A stretch of 64,000 bases of DNA. It comes from Minisyncoccota bacterium (GTDB taxonomy: Bacteria; Patescibacteriota; Minisyncoccia; Phycocordibacterales; UBA9973). How positions within the stretch are numbered: position 1 is the first letter of the stretch; the number at the start of each line of letters is the position of its first letter. Where the stretch lies: positions 20,606 through 84,605 of the forward strand of contig JBAYVZ010000003.1 in NCBI GenBank assembly GCA_041674285.1, given 5' to 3'. Position numbers and translations under genes: made by a program. Shown here piece after piece: positions 3,022-28,574 of this stretch. A model generated the notes under the pieces. The model saw nothing but the letters and a program-made list of their open reading frames with translations. It did not search any database and was not told the origin of the DNA.

Positions 3022-3422
3022 AGACCAAATAATTCAAATGAATGACTGTTTATCGACGCAAAATCTTTGGCCTGAGACAGGGCCTTCTTTATCAAATCAC
3101 TAGACCCGCAACCTACGAAATCCGAGACTTTTTTGCATGAAGTACATACAATGTGATGGTGGTCATGCTTTTCATCTACTAGCTCAAAATAAGGAACAGA
3201 ATCCTGAAGGTCTACTTGTCGTACCAATCCTGCTTCTTTAAAAGATGACACGATACGATACAATGTCACTTCGTGAGCATTTGACGATTTTATCTTACTA
3301 GCAATATCCTTTAATGTTAAAGGTTGATGAAAAGAATGAAAAATACTAAACAACTCAAGCCTTTGGTCTGTGGCTTTTAGATTTTTATCTCTTAAAATAT
3401 TCTTTAATTCTTCCAAATTCAT
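2997..3422 (-). CDS. Fur family transcriptional regulator (Zur-like)
   Basis: N-terminal wHTH (KxTxQR...); HDHHH and CxxC...CxxC metal sites. Confidence 0.75.
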   Translation of the reverse strand: MNLEELKNILRDKNLKATDQRLELFSIFHSFHQPLTLKDIASKIKSSNAHEVTLYRIVSSFKEAGLVRQVDLQDSVPYFELVDEKHDHHHIVCTSCKKVSDFVGCGSSDLIKKALSQAKDFASINSHSFELFGLCKKCSKA

Positions 3423-3459: not shown

Positions 3460-4200
3460 CTAACCTATAAACACCTGGGATTCATCATGGTGATCATCCT
3501 CACCCCCATGAGTATGAGGCACGAGCACCAATGACATAGTCAATAAAAATGCACCTAGCAAGAATCCTAAGAGATAATCCTTTGTATATTTAGCATGGGA
3601 CAAATCTTGGAAAACTTTCCAAGATACGATACCAGCAGAAACTGCTATCAGTATTGGCTCCACCACTTCACCCACATCTCCACTTATAAACAAGGTTGCG
3701 AAAATAGACAATGATATGAAGATAGAAAAGAACAAAGCACGAATAGGCTTTACACCACTCTCTACTAGGAGTACCTGTTGGCCAAATTGCTGAATAGTCT
3801 GATGCCCCAATATCCCAAACATAGCTACGAATCCCCCTGCAGAAACAGCAATACCATCTACTGCATTGTGGAATATATCAGAAATAAAGATTCTTATTGT
3901 ACTTGTTTTATTGTGTATATGCTTTGATTCTGATTCAGAGTGGTGATGGTGGAATTCTTTTACGAATAGTCCGATAAAGAAACTCCCCAGTAATCCAGCT
4001 CCATACCAAGTGATAGTCCCCTGCAATCCAGAGTCCGCCAATGATTCACGAACGAGGAGGACAATAAGTGCTAGATATACACCTATGGCAAAACCCCGAA
4101 CCCAATCCTTTTGGAAAAAAGATGGATTCTTTGGTAAAAAGAAAACTAATAATGCGGGTAATATACCAGCTAGAAACAATTGAATAAATAAAATACTCAT
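3460..4200 (-). CDS. ZIP family divalent metal (zinc) transporter, ZupT-like
   Basis: HHHH-rich loop and HNAVDG motif; directly downstream of the Fur/Zur gene. Confidence 0.65.
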   Translation of the reverse strand: MSILFIQLFLAGILPALLVFFLPKNPSFFQKDWVRGFAIGVYLALIVLLVRESLADSGLQGTITWYGAGLLGSFFIGLFVKEFHHHHSESESKHIHNKTSTIRIFISDIFHNAVDGIAVSAGGFVAMFGILGHQTIQQFGQQVLLVESGVKPIRALFFSIFISLSIFATLFISGDVGEVVEPILIAVSAGIVSWKVFQDLSHAKYTKDYLLGFLLGAFLLTMSLVLVPHTHGGEDDHHDESQVFIG

Positions 4201-5217: not shown

Positions 5218-7116
5218 CTAAACGGTTATAATTTCTGGATCTTTTAATTTCGGCTTTATTCCATGCTCAATTATTATCTTGTTGTATTCATCTTGCTCGA
5301 GAGTCTCTACCTCTATCAATTTCTTTGCTATAGCATCTAATATATGACGGTTCTCGGATAGGACCTTGCGGGCTACTTCTAGTGAATCATCCATAATTTT
5401 TTTCACTTCGCCATCTATCACCGCGCTCATCTTTTCAGAATACTCCTTATCATTCACTCCACGGCCGAACAAGGTCTTGCCTCCATCACTCTCGAGAGCT
5501 ATCGGACCGATACTATCACTCATACCCCATCGTGTGACCATAGCACGAGCTAGATTCGTTGCGACTTGTAGATCATTTGAAGGACCAGTAGTTATATCCC
5601 CTAGTATCATCTCCTCGGCTACATATCCACCGAGTGACATTGCTATATCATCGAGGAATTCTTTTTTACTTTGTAGCTTTCGATCTTCTAGTGGGAGCTT
5701 TAATGTATATCCACCAGCGCGTCCACGAGACACTATAGATGCTTTGTGAACTGGATCTGCGTATGGGAGTACTGATGCTACTAGTGCATGTCCTGCCTCG
5801 TGATATGCAGTGATTTCTTTTTCAGCTTTTGAGAGGAGGTGACTCTTGCGCTCTGGGCCCATCATCACCTTTTCAATAGAACGTATCAAATCATTTTGAG
5901 CTACAGTCTTGCGCTCTTCACGAGCAGCGAGGATCGCAGATTCATTCATCAGTGAGTACAAGTCGGCGCCAGAGAATCCGGGAGTTCTTTCTGCTATCAC
6001 CTTTAGATTCACATCTTCTGCAAATGGCTTCTTGCGAGCGTGGATAGAGAGTATCGCTTCACGATCAGATCGGTCAGGTAGGTCTAGAGTCACCCTACGA
6101 TCAAACCGACCTGGGCGTAGAAGTGCTGGATCGAGGACATCTGATCTATTTGTAGCAGCCATCACTATCACCTTTTCTGTCGGCTCGAATCCATCCATCT
6201 CCACTAGTATCTGATTGAGTGTCTGCTCACGTTCATCATTGCCGCCGCCGACACCCGTACCACGCACACGACCTACTGCATCTATCTCGTCGATAAATAC
6301 GATAGATGGTGAAGCCTTCTTGGCCATCTTGAATAGATCACGCACACGACTTGCTCCGACACCGACGAACATCTCTACGAATTCAGATCCAGACAGGTGG
6401 AAGAATGGCACCTCTGCCTCCCCTGCTACTGCACGAGCAAGCAGTGTCTTTCCAGTACCTGGATGTCCTGTGAGTAGTACTCCCTTTGGAATCTGCGCAC
6501 CGATATCTAGAAACTTTTTTGGATTCTTTAAAAAATCTACGATTTCTTCGAGCTCCTGCTTTGCCTCCTTTGCACCGGCCACATCTTTGAATGTTACTTT
6601 ATTTTTCTTGTCATCAGGATTTGTAATTCTTGCTTTTGATTGTCCAAAAGTAAAAGCTTGCATACCCTGCCCCTTGGCCTGGCGAGTCATCATCCATAGG
6701 AAGAATCCGATCAGTAGTACTGGCAATAGGAATGGCAAAATATTCATTAGCCAATACGTAAATCCACTCTCAGTCTTTACCTCTATCGGAGTAGTTGCCA
6801 ATTTTTCTGGAGTCACTCCATAGCGAGTCAGAGTTTCGGACATTGAATTCTCTAATTCCTTCTTTGTCTCACCCACTGTCTTGTCTTTGAATGTGACATT
6901 TACATCACTACCAGAGACCTCGATCTTCTCGATAGTGCCAGCATTTACCCCACTTGCCACATCGGCAATAGTCAGCTTCTTTACCTCTACCCCTGGTTTT
7001 GAGAGTGCACTGTAGGCAAGAGTTATCGCTACAAATATAAATATAGCTATAAAGATTTGTTGGCCAAATTTCGGTAATTGTTGTTTATTTTTCGATGTTT
7101 TTTTATTATTATCCAT
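5218..7116 (-). CDS. ftsH: ATP-dependent zinc metalloprotease FtsH
   Basis: N-terminal TMs; AAA Walker A GHPGTGKT; SRH; HEAGHAL zinc site. Confidence 0.95.
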
Positions 7117-7233
7117 CCCGTTAGAGATAGGTAATGCTTACATTACCGTATCTTATTAATATATATTAAAAATACGACATTCATTTTATAAATCACCCAA
7201 AATTAGAAAGATAACAAGCACATCTCTAACGGG
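7117..7233 (-). promoter_or_regulatory. structured 5' leader element, copy A (12-bp long-range stem CCCGTTAGAGAT/ATCTCTAACGGG enclosing the hairpin GGTAATG-CTTA-CATTACC), directly abutting the ftsH ATG
   Basis: One of three copies of the same architecture (others at 14029-14147 and 28018-28134), with compensatory changes in the stems. Confidence 0.55.
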
Positions 7234-7484
7234 AGACATAAGTCTTTGTATTATATAGTACAAAGGCCTATTTGACAAAATAACTCAAAAGGTGTATAAT
7301 ATACTCAAATGACAGACAATAAAGAACCTCATTTCTTTGCCACAACAGGCAAACAAATGAGTTTAGCTGCACTCGCAACAATAATAGTAGTAATACTATT
7401 TCTGGCCTTCTGCGGCTAACCGGAAAATCTTGGACTGCCATTTATGAGCAGTCCAATTTTGATTATTGTGCTAATATATAAAAT

Positions 7485-7925
7485 ATGGTCACATTTATAG
7501 ACAATAGAAAAGCGCACTTCAATTATGAGGTGATAGAAAAGTTTGAAGCCGGAGTAGAGCTCCTAGGCTTTGAAGTCAAATCTATCCGAGCTGGGATGGT
7601 CAATCTCGCAGGGGCATTTTGTATTGTACGAGGTGGCGAGGTGTACCTGATGGGTATGCATGTCACGCCATATCAAGCCAAGAATACTCCACTTGATTAT
7701 TCACCTGATCGAAACCGCAAACTTTTATTGAATAAAAAAGAAATAAAAGAATTGGGCGATGCAGATAAATCAAAAGGTTTGACTCTAATTCCCCTATCGC
7801 TATATAGTAAGGGGCGTACGATCAAGCTCGAGCTAGGAATCGCAAAGGGTAAAAAATTGCATGACAAGCGCGAGAGTATCAAGAAGAGAGACACTGATCG
7901 TGAGATCAGACGAGAGTATAAATAG
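7485..7925 (+). CDS. smpB: SsrA-binding protein SmpB
   Basis: Conserved SmpB sequence (NRKAHFNYEV...GxEVKS...); followed by the tmRNA. Confidence 0.9.
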   Translation: MVTFIDNRKAHFNYEVIEKFEAGVELLGFEVKSIRAGMVNLAGAFCIVRGGEVYLMGMHVTPYQAKNTPLDYSPDRNRKLLLNKKEIKELGDADKSKGLTLIPLSLYSKGRTIKLELGIAKGKKLHDKRESIKKRDTDREIRREYK

Positions 7926-7956: not shown

Positions 7957-8343
7957 GGGACTGACGGGCTTCGATAGGAAGTGCCATCATACTTGTGCAT
8001 GTAGAGTCCGCAGGAATCTCTTTAAACTTCTTGCAAAAGACTAAGTGCAAATAAAGTCGCTGCGGTAAAATCTCCATACGCTGGAAATTTTGCTTTCTCA
8101 TTCGCTTAATTATTTAAGCCCGTGAGATGTCAGGCTTATCGACATCCGATAAATAAGCTCTGGCATAATATATCGGGTTACGGAATATAGACAGCTTGAC
8201 TATATTCCCTACAATTAAGAGCTCGGTATGTATTCGTATTTCTTATTCTCTAGGATACATATTTAAAACCAATCGAATAAGATAAACATGTAGACTCATT
8301 TATGAACATTTTTTACACGGCGGTTCAACTCCGCCCAGTTCCA
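7957..8343 (+). ncRNA. ssrA: tmRNA (ssrA); tag reading frame ends ...AGNFAFSFA-TAA
   Basis: 5' GGGACTGACGGGCTTCGA; 3' T-arm GGCGGTTCAACTCCGCC and acceptor CAGTTCC with G3:U70 pair; tag ORF ends AFSFA*, a Mycoplasma-type non-ALAA tag. Confidence 0.8.
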
Positions 8344-8358
8344 CACGTAAAAACATTT

Positions 8359-12654: not shown

Positions 12655-14028
12655 TTAGCATTCTAGTATCACACTATCCCCCGCCATAGGAGTCTCGACA
12701 TTTATATCGAGATTATCCTTTAGTTTTTGAGCTAAGAACATAGCTGCCTTTGGCTCACCCATAACTACAAAAACTTTCTTTACAGTGCTAGCTGTGTCTG
12801 AGACGAATTCAAGCAGGTGGTCGGAATCTTTGTGTCCAGAGTATCCTGTAATCTTTTCCATACGGGCTGCAACCTTTACATCTTGACCTTGTATCCGGAT
12901 TATCTTGTGACCCTCCTCTATAGAGCGACCCAGAGTACCTACAGCCTGATAACCGATCAGGAGCAGTGTATTCTTTGGGTCAGGCAAATAATTCTTCTCG
13001 TGATGAATTATTCTACCCCCATTACTCATACCGGACCCTGCTATGATAATCTTGGGATTTGGAGATCGTAGTATTGCCTTGGATTCTTCTGTATCTGGTG
13101 TGATTTTGAGCCCCGGGAAATTAAATATATCATCTCCACCCATAATCACTTTGCGGGCAGTCTCATTGAAGTACTTTTCATACTTTTTATAAATCTTGGT
13201 CAGAGTGATGGCCAGTGGTGAATCCAAGTATATAGGCATCACTGGTATCTCCTTTTTCTCAACAAAAAGATCTATCTCGTACATCAACTCTTGGGTCCTT
13301 TCTAGGGAGAATGATGGTATCATAAGAACTCCGCCCCTTTTGTAATTGTCCAATATAATTTGCTTTAATCTATCAGATCTAACCTCTCTATCCTCATGAT
13401 TTCTATCTCCATATACAGACTCCATAATCATGTAATCTGCATCTGTAATCTTTTCAGTATCTCGTAGTAGTGGAGACGGAGAATTACCTAGGTCACCAGT
13501 GAATACTATCTTCTTTCCGTTGTATACTACCTCGAGCATTCCAGATCCGAGGATATGCCCAGAATCCTTGTATGAGAATTGGAAGCCATGATCCACATTC
13601 ATAATTTGATGGTAATCGAGTACCTCCCATAGGGCCATCGCTTTTTTTGTATTCTCCATGATGTATATCAAGTCTAGGTGATGTATGACATCGTGAGAAA
13701 GTAGATGGTCTGTATCCTCGAGCATTGCCTCGGTAATATCACGAGTAGGTATAGTAGATACTATTTTACCCTGGAATCCTTCGTGGATGAGCTTTGGTAT
13801 AAGACCGATATGATCGATGTGCCCATGTGTAATAAAAAGTATATCAATCTCTTTTGGATCATAAGGAAATGCATCCCAGTTATTCTGATCAGCAGAGAGA
13901 GTCCCCTGCTCTAACCCACAATCAATCAAAAACTTCTTGCCATTGCCCTCTAATAAAAAATTTGCCCCCGTTACTGTACCTGTACCACCACAGAAAGTAA
14001 GCTTGAGATTTGTATCTTTTTGTTCCAT
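12655..14028 (-). CDS. MBL-fold beta-CASP ribonuclease (RNase J-like)
   Basis: HxHxDH motif (FITHGHIDHIG), beta-CASP region, 457 aa. Confidence 0.7.
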   Translation of the reverse strand: MEQKDTNLKLTFCGGTGTVTGANFLLEGNGKKFLIDCGLEQGTLSADQNNWDAFPYDPKEIDILFITHGHIDHIGLIPKLIHEGFQGKIVSTIPTRDITEAMLEDTDHLLSHDVIHHLDLIYIMENTKKAMALWEVLDYHQIMNVDHGFQFSYKDSGHILGSGMLEVVYNGKKIVFTGDLGNSPSPLLRDTEKITDADYMIMESVYGDRNHEDREVRSDRLKQIILDNYKRGGVLMIPSFSLERTQELMYEIDLFVEKKEIPVMPIYLDSPLAITLTKIYKKYEKYFNETARKVIMGGDDIFNFPGLKITPDTEESKAILRSPNPKIIIAGSGMSNGGRIIHHEKNYLPDPKNTLLLIGYQAVGTLGRSIEEGHKIIRIQGQDVKVAARMEKITGYSGHKDSDHLLEFVSDTASTVKKVFVVMGEPKAAMFLAQKLKDNLDINVETPMAGDSVILEC

Positions 14029-14147
14029 CCCGTTAGAAGTAGATAATCTTTAGATTATCGTACTTAAATTAAATAATAAAATCAAAATATCACGAATATC
14101 TTAATATAACTCCCGTAGCCAGAACAACATATGTGACTTCTAACGGG
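14029..14147 (-). promoter_or_regulatory. structured 5' leader element, copy C (outer stem CCCGTTAGAAGT/ACTTCTAACGGG; inner hairpin GATAATC-TTTA-GATTATC)
   Basis: Same architecture as copies A and B, with compensatory base changes in both stems. Confidence 0.5.
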
Positions 14148-14190
14148 ATTCCATTCTTATATTATATCTGAGAGTAAAAATATTTACTAA

Positions 14191-26745: not shown

Positions 26746-28017
26746 TTAGTACTCTCTCATCGAGAGCTCGGCTTCAATTTTCTTTATAATATCAAGCACT
26801 ACAGACACTACGATCAGGAGAGCTGTACCCCCTAGAGCAAAAGCAGTGATTCCAGTGATAGCCTTCATGACTAGAGGTAGAACAGCTATCACACCTAGGA
26901 ACACAGCTCCCATCAGAGTCACACGGTTCAATATCTTTGCGATATAGTCACGTGTAGCTATGCCTGGGCGGATACCTGGGATAAATGCACCGTTCTTCTG
27001 TAGATTCTCAGAAATTTGATTTGGATCAAATGTAACTGCTGTATAAAAATATGTAAATAGGAATACAAAAATAAAGTAGACTAGAGAGTATAACCATACA
27101 TTTTGTACGAACCATAGTAGAGCATCTCCTATTGCCTTTAATGTACCGTTTGACATCCCTGCTAGGAAATTACCAGCCATTTGAGGGAACAATAGTATAG
27201 ATAGAGCAAAGATTATAGGGATAACTCCTGATTGATTCACACGTAGAGGGATATAAGTCTCTGATCCACCAGTAGTAGCCCCACCACGGATTTGACGTGC
27301 ATAAGTCACTGGGATAGGACGCTCAGCCTCTGTGACAATAACTACACCCACGATTATCAATATTCCAACAACTAGGAATAGTAGGTACATAGGGATACTA
27401 GCTACATCAAAAGTAAATAGGAATTGATTCAACTCTTTATGGATATTCGCTACGATACCAGCAAAGATGATCAATGATACACCGTTACCAATACCAAATT
27501 CTGAAACTAGCTCACCGAGCCACATTAACAACATTGAACCAGCTACGATAACTGCTACGTTTGCAATCTGACCAAACACTGTTATATCACCGAGTACACC
27601 TTGCTGAGACAACAACATCATGAATGTAATACCTTGGATAATAGCAAGAGGTATAGTCAGTAGACGGCTGATGCGGTTGAATTTCTTCTTGCCAATCTCG
27701 CCATCTTCCTGATACATAGCCTTTATACGAGGTGACATGATAGTCACAAGCTGCATGATGATAGATGAAGTGATGTATGGGCCTACTCCAAGCATGATAA
27801 GAGAAAGATGAGACAATCCCCCACCAGAGAAGACATTCAATACTCCTAGGAATTGATTATTATTCAAAAACGCTTGTAGCTTCATAGCATCTACTCCAGG
27901 AATCGGAATAGCAGCTAGTAGACGAAACACCACCAATATAGCAAGAACAAACAAGACACGCTTTCGGAGCGCCTTGTCGGTAAAAACTGTTTTTATTTTA
28001 TGTAGAAACTTTTCCAT
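26746..28017 (-). CDS. secY: preprotein translocase subunit SecY
   Basis: 10-TM SecY sequence; after rplO. Confidence 0.95.
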   Translation of the reverse strand: MEKFLHKIKTVFTDKALRKRVLFVLAILVVFRLLAAIPIPGVDAMKLQAFLNNNQFLGVLNVFSGGGLSHLSLIMLGVGPYITSSIIMQLVTIMSPRIKAMYQEDGEIGKKKFNRISRLLTIPLAIIQGITFMMLLSQQGVLGDITVFGQIANVAVIVAGSMLLMWLGELVSEFGIGNGVSLIIFAGIVANIHKELNQFLFTFDVASIPMYLLFLVVGILIIVGVVIVTEAERPIPVTYARQIRGGATTGGSETYIPLRVNQSGVIPIIFALSILLFPQMAGNFLAGMSNGTLKAIGDALLWFVQNVWLYSLVYFIFVFLFTYFYTAVTFDPNQISENLQKNGAFIPGIRPGIATRDYIAKILNRVTLMGAVFLGVIAVLPLVMKAITGITAFALGGTALLIVVSVVLDIIKKIEAELSMREY

Positions 28018-28134
28018 CCTGTTAGAGATAGGTAGTCAAAAGACTACCGTATCTTATTAATTATTGTAAATAATATATATTATAAATAAACTCTCTAATC
28101 TATCTTATAAAACAACAAACGAATCTCTAACAGG
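28018..28134 (-). promoter_or_regulatory. structured 5' leader element, copy B (outer stem CCTGTTAGAGAT/ATCTCTAACAGG; inner hairpin GGTAGTC-AAAA-GACTACC), filling the rplO-secY spacer
   Basis: Same architecture as copies A and C; the C-to-T change in the 5' arm is compensated by G-to-A in the 3' arm. Confidence 0.55.
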
Positions 28135-28145
28135 ATCCATTAGTA

Positions 28146-28574
28146 TTATTTTATAGTTCCACCAGCTTTTTCAATCTTTGCTTTAGCTGAGTCAGAAACG
28201 ATACAACCTTCAACTGTGATCGAGACTGTGATGTCCCCTGTTCCTAGGATCTTTACCTTTGGAAGCTTGCCACTTACCTTGCGGATAAGCTTGTTAGCAA
28301 AAAGTGCTGTAGGGTTCACAACTGTTCCGTCTGTAAATATATTCAATGAAGAAACATTCACAACGTTTGGCTTTGAAACTGTAGACTTAAAACGATATCC
28401 ACGAAGTTTTGGAAGCTTCTTTATGATATCACGAATTTGAGGACGGCGCTTGTTACCAGCACGAGCTGTCTGACCCTTTCCTCCACGTCCAGATTGCTTA
28501 CCACGAGTACCACCACGTCCTACTTGGCGTGCCTTCTTATTTGGATTTTTTCTTTTTAATTCGTTTAATTGCAT
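28146..28574 (-). CDS. rplO: 50S ribosomal protein L15
   Basis: Gly/Arg-rich N-terminus (GRGGTRGKQSGRGGKG) and operon order. Confidence 0.9.
   Translation of the reverse strand: MQLNELKRKNPNKKARQVGRGGTRGKQSGRGGKGQTARAGNKRRPQIRDIIKKLPKLRGYRFKSTVSKPNVVNVSSLNIFTDGTVVNPTALFANKLIRKVSGKLPKVKILGTGDITVSITVEGCIVSDSAKAKIEKAGGTIK

Follow-up and report, generated by a model that had tools for sequence, protein, structure and literature searches.

A structured element of about 120 nucleotides occurs three times in a 64-kb stretch of DNA from a Minisyncoccota bacterium (GenBank assembly GCA_041674285.1, contig JBAYVZ010000003.1, positions 20,606 to 84,605), each time directly before the start codon of a gene: ftsH, secY, and a gene for a beta-CASP/MBL RNase. 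The whole stretch of 64,000 nucleotides is called the window here. It was found that the three copies are insertions which are polymorphic between close relatives. They are very likely non-coding internal-deletion derivatives, that is, MITEs (miniature transposable elements with inverted repeats), of a mobile element of about 277 bp whose sole gene encodes a GIY-YIG nuclease. The original prediction, made from the letters of the window, had favored a functional RNA and had named MITE-like insertions with 12-bp terminal inverted repeats (TIRs) and TCCAT-like flanks as the alternative. Empty sites in relatives and a duplicated host start now bear out that alternative. The TCCAT-like flanks are the duplicated host start region, which had not been recognized as such.

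The three copies in the window

All three copies lie on the minus strand, to which the coordinates below refer unless marked otherwise. Copy 1 (7116-7234, element body 7117-7233) is in the 5′ untranslated region of ftsH (5218-7116). Its 5′ arm is at 7233-7222 and its 3′ arm at 7128-7117, with a terminal T at 7234 and a terminal A at 7116, which is the A of the ftsH ATG. Copy 2 (28017-28135, body 28018-28134) lies between rplO (28146-28574), which is upstream, and secY (26746-28017), with arms at 28134-28123 and 28029-28018, a terminal T at 28135, and a terminal A at 28017. Copy 3 (14028-14148, body 14029-14147) precedes the RNase gene (12655-14028), and its arms are at 14147-14136 and 14040-14029. 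Pfam confirmed the ftsH, secY, and beta-CASP/MBL RNase genes, and the 3′ arm ends exactly at the ATG of each, as originally noted. The smpB and tmRNA genes are located beside ftsH.

The positions and the strand given in the original prediction were confirmed by reading the sites directly and by exact arm matches. The sequence CCYGTTAGARRT has six exact occurrences (0 mismatches) in the window, which are both arms of the three copies, while shuffled sequences gave a chance expectation of 1.96 at up to one mismatch. The arms are perfect 12-nt reverse complements within each copy, and the differences between copies (AGAT/ATCT, AAGT/ACTT, and C/G versus T/A) are mirrored across both arms in all three. 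Directly before the 3′ arm, the predicted folds have a 7-bp inner hairpin, which pairs in each copy despite changes in its sequence (GGTAATG-TAAG-CATTACC at 7130-7147 in copy 1; 28031-28048 in copy 2; 14042-14059 in copy 3). This hairpin is what is left of a long-range inner stem in the full-length element described below. The predicted closing stem is 13-14 bp long, since pairing extends to the flanking T and to the AU of the AUG. Thus, the supposition that the initiation region is held in a long helix agrees with the predicted folds, which place the start codon at the base of the helix. The fold z-scores range from -3.5 to -4.4 on the sense strand and from -3.3 to -6.3 on the antisense strand. 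A box described as conserved, CGTATCTTATTAA, is present in copies 1 and 2 and missing from copy 3.

The copies are 117-119 nt in length, and their coding capacity is limited to mini-ORFs of 4-17 codons that begin at an ATG upstream of the element. This second ATG lies 6-7 nt upstream of each 5′ arm (ATGTCT, ATGGAT, and ATGGAAT for copies 1, 2, and 3, respectively), and the sequences following the 3′ arms are ATGGAT, ATGGAA, and ATGGAA in the same order. The upstream ATG comes from duplication of the host start codon. A profile made from more than 100 relatives matched these three copies only (E = 4e-12, 2e-10, and 3e-7), and nhmmer and hmmsearch profiles detected no further or degenerate copies and no GIY-YIG ORF in the window.

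Empty sites and target duplications

At all three genes, the site is empty in close relatives, which have 86-97% identical proteins and conserved synteny. A syntenic 21-kb locus, L246, lacks all three copies (L-numbered names denote comparison loci from public genomes or metagenomes). The secY site is empty in L123, L124, and L246, whose SecY proteins are 88-89% identical to that of the window. It reads ...AAATAATA|ATGGAAAAG in these loci, where ATGGAAAAG begins 2-7 nt past the rplO stop codon. Compared with them, the junction in the window, ...ACTAA-TGGA-[TCCTG...CAGGA]-TGGA-AAAG, is a precise insertion with a duplication of TGGA. The upstream copy of the duplicated target, ATGGA at 28136-28140 (TGGA at 28139-28136), is the original secY start, 5 nt past the rplO stop codon. 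The downstream TGGA (28013-28016) makes the working secY start codon together with the terminal A of the element.

The RNase gene is uninterrupted in L247, which has a 97% identical protein and identical flanking DNA (...TATAATATAAGA|ATGGAA|CAAAAAG); the window has ATGGAA both upstream (14149-14154) and downstream (14028-14023) of copy 3. At ftsH, the empty site of L246 is ...TATAATACAAGGACTT|ATGGATAAAAAC, which can also be read as ...TATAATACAAGGACTT-ATGGATAAA. Thus, the upstream ATGTCT in the window is a decayed ATGGAT, and the ATGTC at 7235-7239, from a decayed ATGGA, is a relic of the original ftsH start. At least one of the three insertions is recent.

Other relatives have unrelated spacers between rplO and secY, one of 41 nt (L121/L122, 1460-1500) and one of 74 nt (L125, 1427-1500). 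These have ...AAACCT(C)ATAACTTA(A)TTTATGG in common, and there is a small palindrome in L121. The rplO-secY junction seems to collect different insertions.

The full-length element and its GIY-YIG gene

Solo and odd-sized arm pairs in the comparison loci led to L060 3888-4164, where identical arms surround an ORF of 84 amino acids (aa) on the reverse strand. Elements of about 277 nt with the same arms and an intact GIY-YIG ORF were found in L060, L118, L102, and L012, and in these four loci MITE and full-length copies lie at most 8 kb apart. The ORF of this parent element matches PF01541 with an E-value of about 1e-16 (60-62 bits against a cut-off of 22.6), and the motifs Y-x-Y...Y-T-G...R...H-N...Y-Y-E are visible in the nuclease sequences. 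Among solved structures, the UPF0213 protein BH0048 (PDB 1ZG2; E = 8e-6) comes nearest, and the NCBIfam model of group I intron endonucleases, TIGR01453, gave a sub-threshold score of 22 bits (cut-off, 56). When metagenomes were scanned for arms spaced by 240-268 nt, at least 120 loci were obtained, and 121 matches were analyzed. Among these 121 matches listed, 95 have a GIY-YIG-recognizable ORF of 78-105 aa, and the ORF is 84-88 aa in 81. The 277-nt class is essentially all ORF, and a nuclease of 84-88 aa is the bare domain without a DNA-binding domain.

The ends of the ORF are built into the ends of the element. Among unique full-length elements with T...A termini, 32 of 36 adjoin a co-oriented host start and none is antisense. 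The commonest C-terminus, ...KNRLKRFLSLTG*, is coded by the 3′ arm itself (TTC CTA TCT CTA ACG GGA TGA). In this type, which accounts for 60 of the 121 matches listed, the stop codon TGA arises where the terminal A meets the duplicated TGA-, ends 4 nt beyond CGGG, and overlaps the rebuilt host ATG (GGGATGA). A second type (...RLGASYL* or ...FFSENF*; 22 of the 121 matches listed) has a TAA stop inside the 3′ arm and is flanked by TGGA. The ATG of the nuclease lies 17-21 nt inside the element, and at the usual spacing of 21 nt it shares the reading frame of the original host ATG (17 of the 25 cases that could be tested). This is reflected in database annotations. In 44 of the best 120 database homologues, the protein is annotated as 95 aa with the start M-N-P-V-R-D-x-x-x-M, which is MNPVRDxxx plus 86 aa, and the MNPVRD extension combines the host ATG-AAT with the 5′ arm, CCC-GTT-AGA-GAT, translated as P-V-R-D.

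In a profile alignment, MITE positions 1-94 matched full-length positions 1-100, and MITE positions 78/93-118 matched full-length positions 230/250-278. Since the MITE profile matches both ends of the full-length element, the MITEs are internal-deletion derivatives. A MITE retains both arms, a decayed 5′ stretch of about 80 nt, and the halves of an inner inverted repeat of 12-15 bp, joined as a short hairpin. In the full-length element, the 12 nt before the 3′ arm complement a segment 71 nt into the ORF, in codons for L-R-K-R-F. The best match of this inner repeat averages 10.25 of 12 positions, compared with 7.5 for shuffled queries (60 distinct 12-mers). Deletion between the two halves left the hairpin of 7-13 bp in the MITEs. 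It was considered whether the inner stem is a by-product of a repeated K-R-F peptide motif (a AAGCGCTT palindrome), and this was rejected, since the complementarity persists with different C-termini (…LGASYL and …KSFLQNF).

In 1.69 Mb of comparison loci around more than 250 elements, the recurrent size classes are only about 40-80, 100-130, and 260-290 nt. No larger element with the same arms and a transposase was found above about 290 nt in these loci; whole genomes were not searched. The long arm pairs in the loci are neighboring MITEs, and a pair in L110 that was considered as a larger autonomous element encloses ordinary genes. About 40 copies of the smallest class have little beyond the two arms and a loop (e.g., L076 1344-1404, L117 832-881, L112 2629-2685, and L089 1501-1570), and partial deletions of about 190 nt with the same arms are rare (e.g., L057 858-1048). 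Both of these classes were met incidentally near the targeted elements.

Three further loci are worth recording. L118 1335-1612 is a full-length element at a TTAA site which is not a start codon, with a +1 frameshift near the 3′ end, so that the ORF runs out through the arm; this non-start insertion is possibly a decaying copy. In L060, a complete full-length copy has a solo right-hand end (…ATAATCTCTAACGGGG; 3850-3885) at a distance of 4 nt, which suggests a tandem or nested insertion or a partial deletion. In L010 2150-2560, a different small GIY-YIG gene lies between two copies of another hairpin-bearing repeat (TATATTCCGCAGTAGCTCTCCGCCAGCTGGCGGAGG[G/T]AGAGCA), suggesting that repeat-bounded mini GIY-YIG elements comprise more than one family.

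Distribution and placement of the family

Is the element common outside the window? When 185,579 species genomes were scanned for the arm pair at the MITE spacing, at least 120 loci matched, and in all more than 120 further copies were found in public genomes, before unrelated genes and in either orientation. Among the matches listed, most are from Patescibacteria (Saccharibacteria, Paceibacterota, Kaiserbacteria, and others), and Planctomycetota, Omnitrophota, and Elusimicrobia are also represented. The TIRs are 12-14 bp in length, (T/C)CCCGTTAGARRT...AYYTCTAACGGG(A/G), and the target duplication is 4 bp, sometimes 3 or 5, and usually TGAA or TGGA.

Among the matches listed, a start codon with an ORF of at least 60 codons adjoins 93 of the 134 elements of 100-135 nt. 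The terminal base pair of these start-codon MITEs is T...A in 85 of 93, with the flank pattern ...A-TGNN-[T-CCCG...CGGG-A]-TGNN..., and the 4-nt flanks are identical in 70 of 93 (TGAA in 49 and TGGA in 19). In Patescibacteria, the element sits in the host start codon: the original A-TGNN remains upstream, and the terminal A and the duplicated TGNN make an intact ATG. Thus, the host ORF is left untouched.

Elements with C...G termini were found in Planctomycetota, Omnitrophota, and Elusimicrobia (L003, L022, L036, L052, L056, L075, L082, L106, L119, L120, and others), flanked by the T-N-N-A sequences TTTA, TTGA, or TAAA. MITEs of this type are placed 1-20 nt upstream of the next long ORF in 16 of 35 cases, often directly before a Shine-Dalgarno sequence (GGGG-TAAAGGAG...ATG), and some have an extended arm, CTTGC.../...GCAAG or TTTAC.../...GTGAA. 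In metagenome contigs (L192 93-375, L244, and L183), full-length GIY-YIG elements with G...C termini lie at the 5′ end of tRNA-Pro genes. The final CGGG of the element provides the first four nucleotides of the tRNA, the ARAGORN tRNA start being 4 nt inside the element, and CTGTAG or CTGTGG is duplicated on both sides. This is the same rebuilding of a 5′ end as at start codons, applied to a tRNA.

How the element may move

In the proposed mechanism, the GIY-YIG nuclease, supplied in trans, would make cuts at the arms as well as at T-N-N-A targets, after which host repair or ligation would finish the move. Cuts staggered by 4 nt at both boundaries of the duplication would free a fragment with cohesive T-N-N-A ends; the donor could then be resealed precisely and the fragment ligated into a target cut in the same way. 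This geometry fits the link of element subtypes to particular duplications (TGAA versus TGGA). The full-length element would be expressed from the promoter and the start codon of the host, and ribosomes would be passed to the host gene by stop-start coupling at the ATGA overlap. Judging from the sequences, the element appears to borrow the transcription and initiation signals of the host and to hand the ribosomes back. On balance, the nuclease is probably the mobility enzyme and would act in trans on the MITEs.

Several points weigh against this interpretation and against the derivation of the window copies. The profile search found no full-length GIY-YIG element in the 64-kb window, where a source of the nuclease was not seen. 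Between their arms, the window copies have decayed too far for an alignment to the nuclease gene on their own, and only the arms score with the full-length profile (E = 0.008). The candidate role as a transposase comes solely from the nuclease gene being the only content of the element, and I know of no prokaryotic DNA transposon that uses a hydrolytic GIY-YIG nuclease. Characterized GIY-YIG enzymes are known to leave short 3′ overhangs, which do not obviously explain a 4-bp duplication. The length of the direct repeat varies from 3 to 6 nt, and about one quarter of the copies have non-identical flanks. The start-codon bias may result from a preference for A-TG-R-A targets together with purifying selection, instead of from active targeting.

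Could another enzyme move the MITEs? A conventional transposase encoded elsewhere might recognize the arms, and the GIY-YIG ORF would then be a passenger or a homing or maintenance nuclease, like TnpB in IS605. The observed size classes are too small for a transposase, and there is hardly room beside the ORF in the 277-nt class. The arms and the duplication provide the start and stop of the ORF, an argument for co-evolution of the gene and the ends as a unit. Against these points stand the presence of MITEs without a nuclease gene in the window, the lack of any known GIY-YIG DNA transposase, and a resemblance of the 4-bp T..A duplication and the CCC/GGG termini to the DDE elements piggyBac and IS5, which serves as a lead only. 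Taken together, movement by another enzyme is improbable.

Returning to a nuclease-driven element, I tentatively propose, as a possibility short of an even chance, that the parent represents an undescribed class of prokaryotic DNA transposon, with a sole 86-aa GIY-YIG gene, two nested inverted repeats, and start-codon capture at A|TGNN. In such a transposon, the nested repeats would be kept by compensatory change even inside the coding sequence. The capture would consist of a borrowed host promoter and start (MNPVRD...), a TGA stop from the duplication, and an ATGA overlap back to the rebuilt ATG. Sister lineages with other terminal pairs would do likewise at the 5′ ends of tRNA-Pro genes and upstream of Shine-Dalgarno sites (Planctomycetota and Omnitrophota). 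Its size of about 277 bp would make it the smallest autonomous mobile element known to me.

Covarying stems and the regulatory-RNA interpretation

The covariation which had been taken as a sign of a functional RNA is that of transposon TIRs. In 122 relatives, 1572 of 1586 outer-arm pairs are Watson-Crick, where the arm core is fixed by the search pattern, so that its near-invariance is partly due to ascertainment. The mismatches are strand-symmetric (G.U to A.C, 7:7 for the outer and 19:20 for the inner stem). This symmetry points to a constraint on DNA, such as ends, a cruciform, or a hairpin recognized in mobility, and not on one RNA strand; a regulatory RNA would be expected to show a G.U bias over A.C.

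The placement of the copies also disagrees with a conserved cis-regulatory RNA that coordinates ftsH, secY, and the RNase gene as a translational regulator, thermometer, standby site, or processing signal. The orthologous conservation that was to be looked for in related genomes is lacking at all three genes, and target duplications flank the copies. The 113 host proteins downstream of family members belong to 155 Pfam families with at most four proteins per family; there is no regulon among the host genes. At gene starts, the inner hairpin of the MITE is gene-proximal in 81 and gene-distal in 14 of 95 cases, so the orientation to the gene is not fixed. Rfam gave no match on the elements, neither in the window at the gathering threshold nor in four related loci at E<=1. 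The sequence itself is a deletion derivative of a nuclease gene. What a regulatory RNA would account for is the strong predicted helix including the AU of the AUG, the mirrored changes in the arms and the inner hairpin, and the carriage by three essential or housekeeping genes. With the evidence above, such a coordinating RNA is very improbable.

Expression of the host genes

A native promoter-like site for ftsH (TTGTCA-17-TATAAT, 11 of 12 matches) lies at 7250-7278, and the same sequence precedes the empty site of L246. Since this site is upstream of the insertion, transcription from it would include the entire element in the ftsH leader, and translation of the host gene past the buried start codon is therefore a real question. 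The secY gene is inside a ribosomal-protein operon. The RNase gene has a TATAAT box at 14166-14161, 6 nt before the relic ATG, and this spacing suggests that its mRNA is probably leaderless. An internal outward promoter in the MITEs is not supported, the gene strand having one weak 9/12 match in copy 2 and none in copies 1 and 3. A crude gene map of this genome of about 38% G+C has almost no Shine-Dalgarno sequences, and the starts follow A/T-rich stretches. SecY places the organism in the Patescibacteria, as a Paceibacterota/Nomurabacteria-like member.

The relic ATGs open mini-ORFs of 17 codons at ftsH (MSPVRD..., through the 5′ arm), 11 codons at secY (MDPVRDSFVVL*), and 4 codons at the RNase gene (MESR*, whose stop is a TAG in the 5′ arm). 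Translation of the mini-ORF by ribosomes that initiate at the relic ATG would proceed through the 5′ arm, melt the arm-arm helix, and expose the real AUG, so that ftsH, secY, and the RNase gene stay expressed. In a check of the conservation of the upstream ATG, most mismatches were 1-nt register shifts (3- or 5-bp duplications), and the numbers were very small. That the whole window MITE is transcribed and a mini-ORF relay unzips the helix to the true AUG is conceivable and rather unlikely; RNase processing of the helix and ribosome shunting would be alternatives.

In a form of shunting modeled on T4 gene 60 bypassing or the cauliflower mosaic virus shunt, ribosomes would initiate at the upstream AUG and hop over the base of the closed helix to the matching AUG-GA, so that the element is translationally spliced out. 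Identical AUGGA(A) sequences flanking a stable helix (copies 2 and 3), a predicted helix that brings the two AUGs side by side, and a genome that does not use Shine-Dalgarno sequences, where a buried AUG needs a special route, would suit it, but it deserves hardly any credence because transposition (the empty sites) accounts for the duplication, copy 1 has lost the match (ATGTC versus ATGGA) and yet precedes the essential ftsH, no stop directly follows the take-off codon in copies 1 and 2, there is no nascent-peptide signal, and unmasking by the mini-ORF or breathing of the AU-rich helix end is simpler. The window copies likewise do not fit a bypass of the T4 gene 60 type, the matched AUG-GA being present in copies 2 and 3 only.

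Other features around these genes were noted. A perfect consensus promoter (TTGACA-17-TATAAT, 12 of 12 matches; 7272-7300 on the plus strand) faces smpB (7485-7925, plus strand), which is followed by the tmRNA gene (7957-8346, plus strand); it is divergent from and overlaps with the ftsH promoter. Many ATGs in the window lie 6-8 nt after a TATAAT box (e.g., the starts at 3422, 22435, 25390, 44467, 62191, and 10070), suggesting widespread leaderless or near-leaderless mRNAs. Read on the antisense strand (plus strand of the window, 7130-7156 and 28031-28057), the inner hairpin followed by GTATCTTATT has an intrinsic-terminator-like score in copies 1 and 2, and it might block antisense transcription into ftsH and secY.

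Discussion

The covarying stem at the three start codons represents the ends of a transposon and not the signal of a regulon, and a false positive is thereby removed from the annotation of the window. The comparisons suggest a very small selfish element centered on a GIY-YIG nuclease, with an architecture fitted to the host start codon that makes insertion nearly harmless. To my knowledge, GIY-YIG enzymes are not recognized as driving prokaryotic DNA transposition. If the proposal is true, it would add a new enzymatic class to the prokaryotic transposons. It would also help to explain the abundant and seemingly horizontally mobile small genes annotated as 'GIY-YIG nuclease family protein' in Patescibacteria. 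A published survey counts a protein with a GIY-YIG catalytic domain among the genes that Patescibacteria are predicted to have passed to other bacteria (PMC12455944). Ambiguities of gene callers about the start, such as 95-aa versus 86-aa forms of the nuclease, would be accounted for as well. The element would offer a compact system for the study of translation initiation and coupling in bacteria without Shine-Dalgarno sequences. The MITEs of the window would be natural experiments, in which secY and ftsH are translated from an AUG buried in a predicted 14-bp helix, presumably via a helix-unzipping mini-ORF.

The window copies share with MITEs their short size, TIRs, a duplication checked against empty sites, and presence/absence polymorphism. 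A longer relative with the same ends exists in the ~277-nt elements coding for the GIY-YIG nuclease, which would carry out the transposition. No description of such an element was found in Rfam or in the searchable full-text literature. The parent belongs to no nameable insertion sequence (IS) family: a transposase of the known IS families (DDE, HUH, Ser/Tyr, or DEDD) was not found in same-armed elements in the comparison loci, to which this search was confined, whole genomes not being covered. The Correia elements of Neisseria, RUP, and Nezha resemble the window copies in being non-coding, about 100-150 nt in length, and numerous, with perfect TIRs and a short target duplication. They are likewise gene-adjacent, co-transcribed as a long hairpin, and polymorphic in presence among strains. 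Unlike them, the present family has a 277-nt GIY-YIG-only parent instead of an IS with a DDE transposase, inserts within the start codon and rebuilds it, and extends over several phyla with near-invariant arm cores (partly due to ascertainment).

GIY-YIG homing endonucleases (I-TevI and T4 Seg) and UPF0213 proteins have the same catalytic domain, and the homing genes are also selfish genes between host genes. In contrast to I-TevI and Seg, the parent ORF of 84-88 aa lacks a DNA-binding domain, and the element has inverted repeats and duplications and occupies more than 100 unrelated sites rather than one cognate site. A homing endonuclease gene of this type was therefore rejected as the identity of the parent, in view of the more than 100 host genes, the duplications, and the bare 86-aa domain. 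IS200/IS605 elements and their PATE or MITE derivatives are likewise very small, with conserved end hairpins and short non-coding derivatives. However, IS200/IS605 has a HUH Y1 transposase and neither TIRs nor target duplications, whereas the element here has perfect TIRs, duplications, and a GIY-YIG gene. An integron attC site was considered for the GTTAGAR/YTCTAAC arms. In attC, the order is RYYYAAC ... GTTRRRY, with the inverse core first and the core last; here GTTAGAR comes first and YTCTAAC last on both strands, and this identity was rejected.

A likeness to piggyBac, a eukaryotic DDE element, is one of form only: it concerns the 4-bp T..A duplication (TTAA in piggyBac; TGAA, TGGA, TTAA, or TTTA here), the CCC...GGG termini, the 13-bp TIR, and a geometry of the duplication that permits precise excision. 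piggyBac differs in its unrelated enzyme class, size, and host range, and the element here has no DDE gene. Lastly, Rickettsia palindromic elements and group I/II introns are selfish insertions which also preserve the product of the host gene. They do so by in-frame translation or RNA splicing, whereas the silence of the present element comes from duplication of the start codon and, in the full-length form, from the ATGA overlap.

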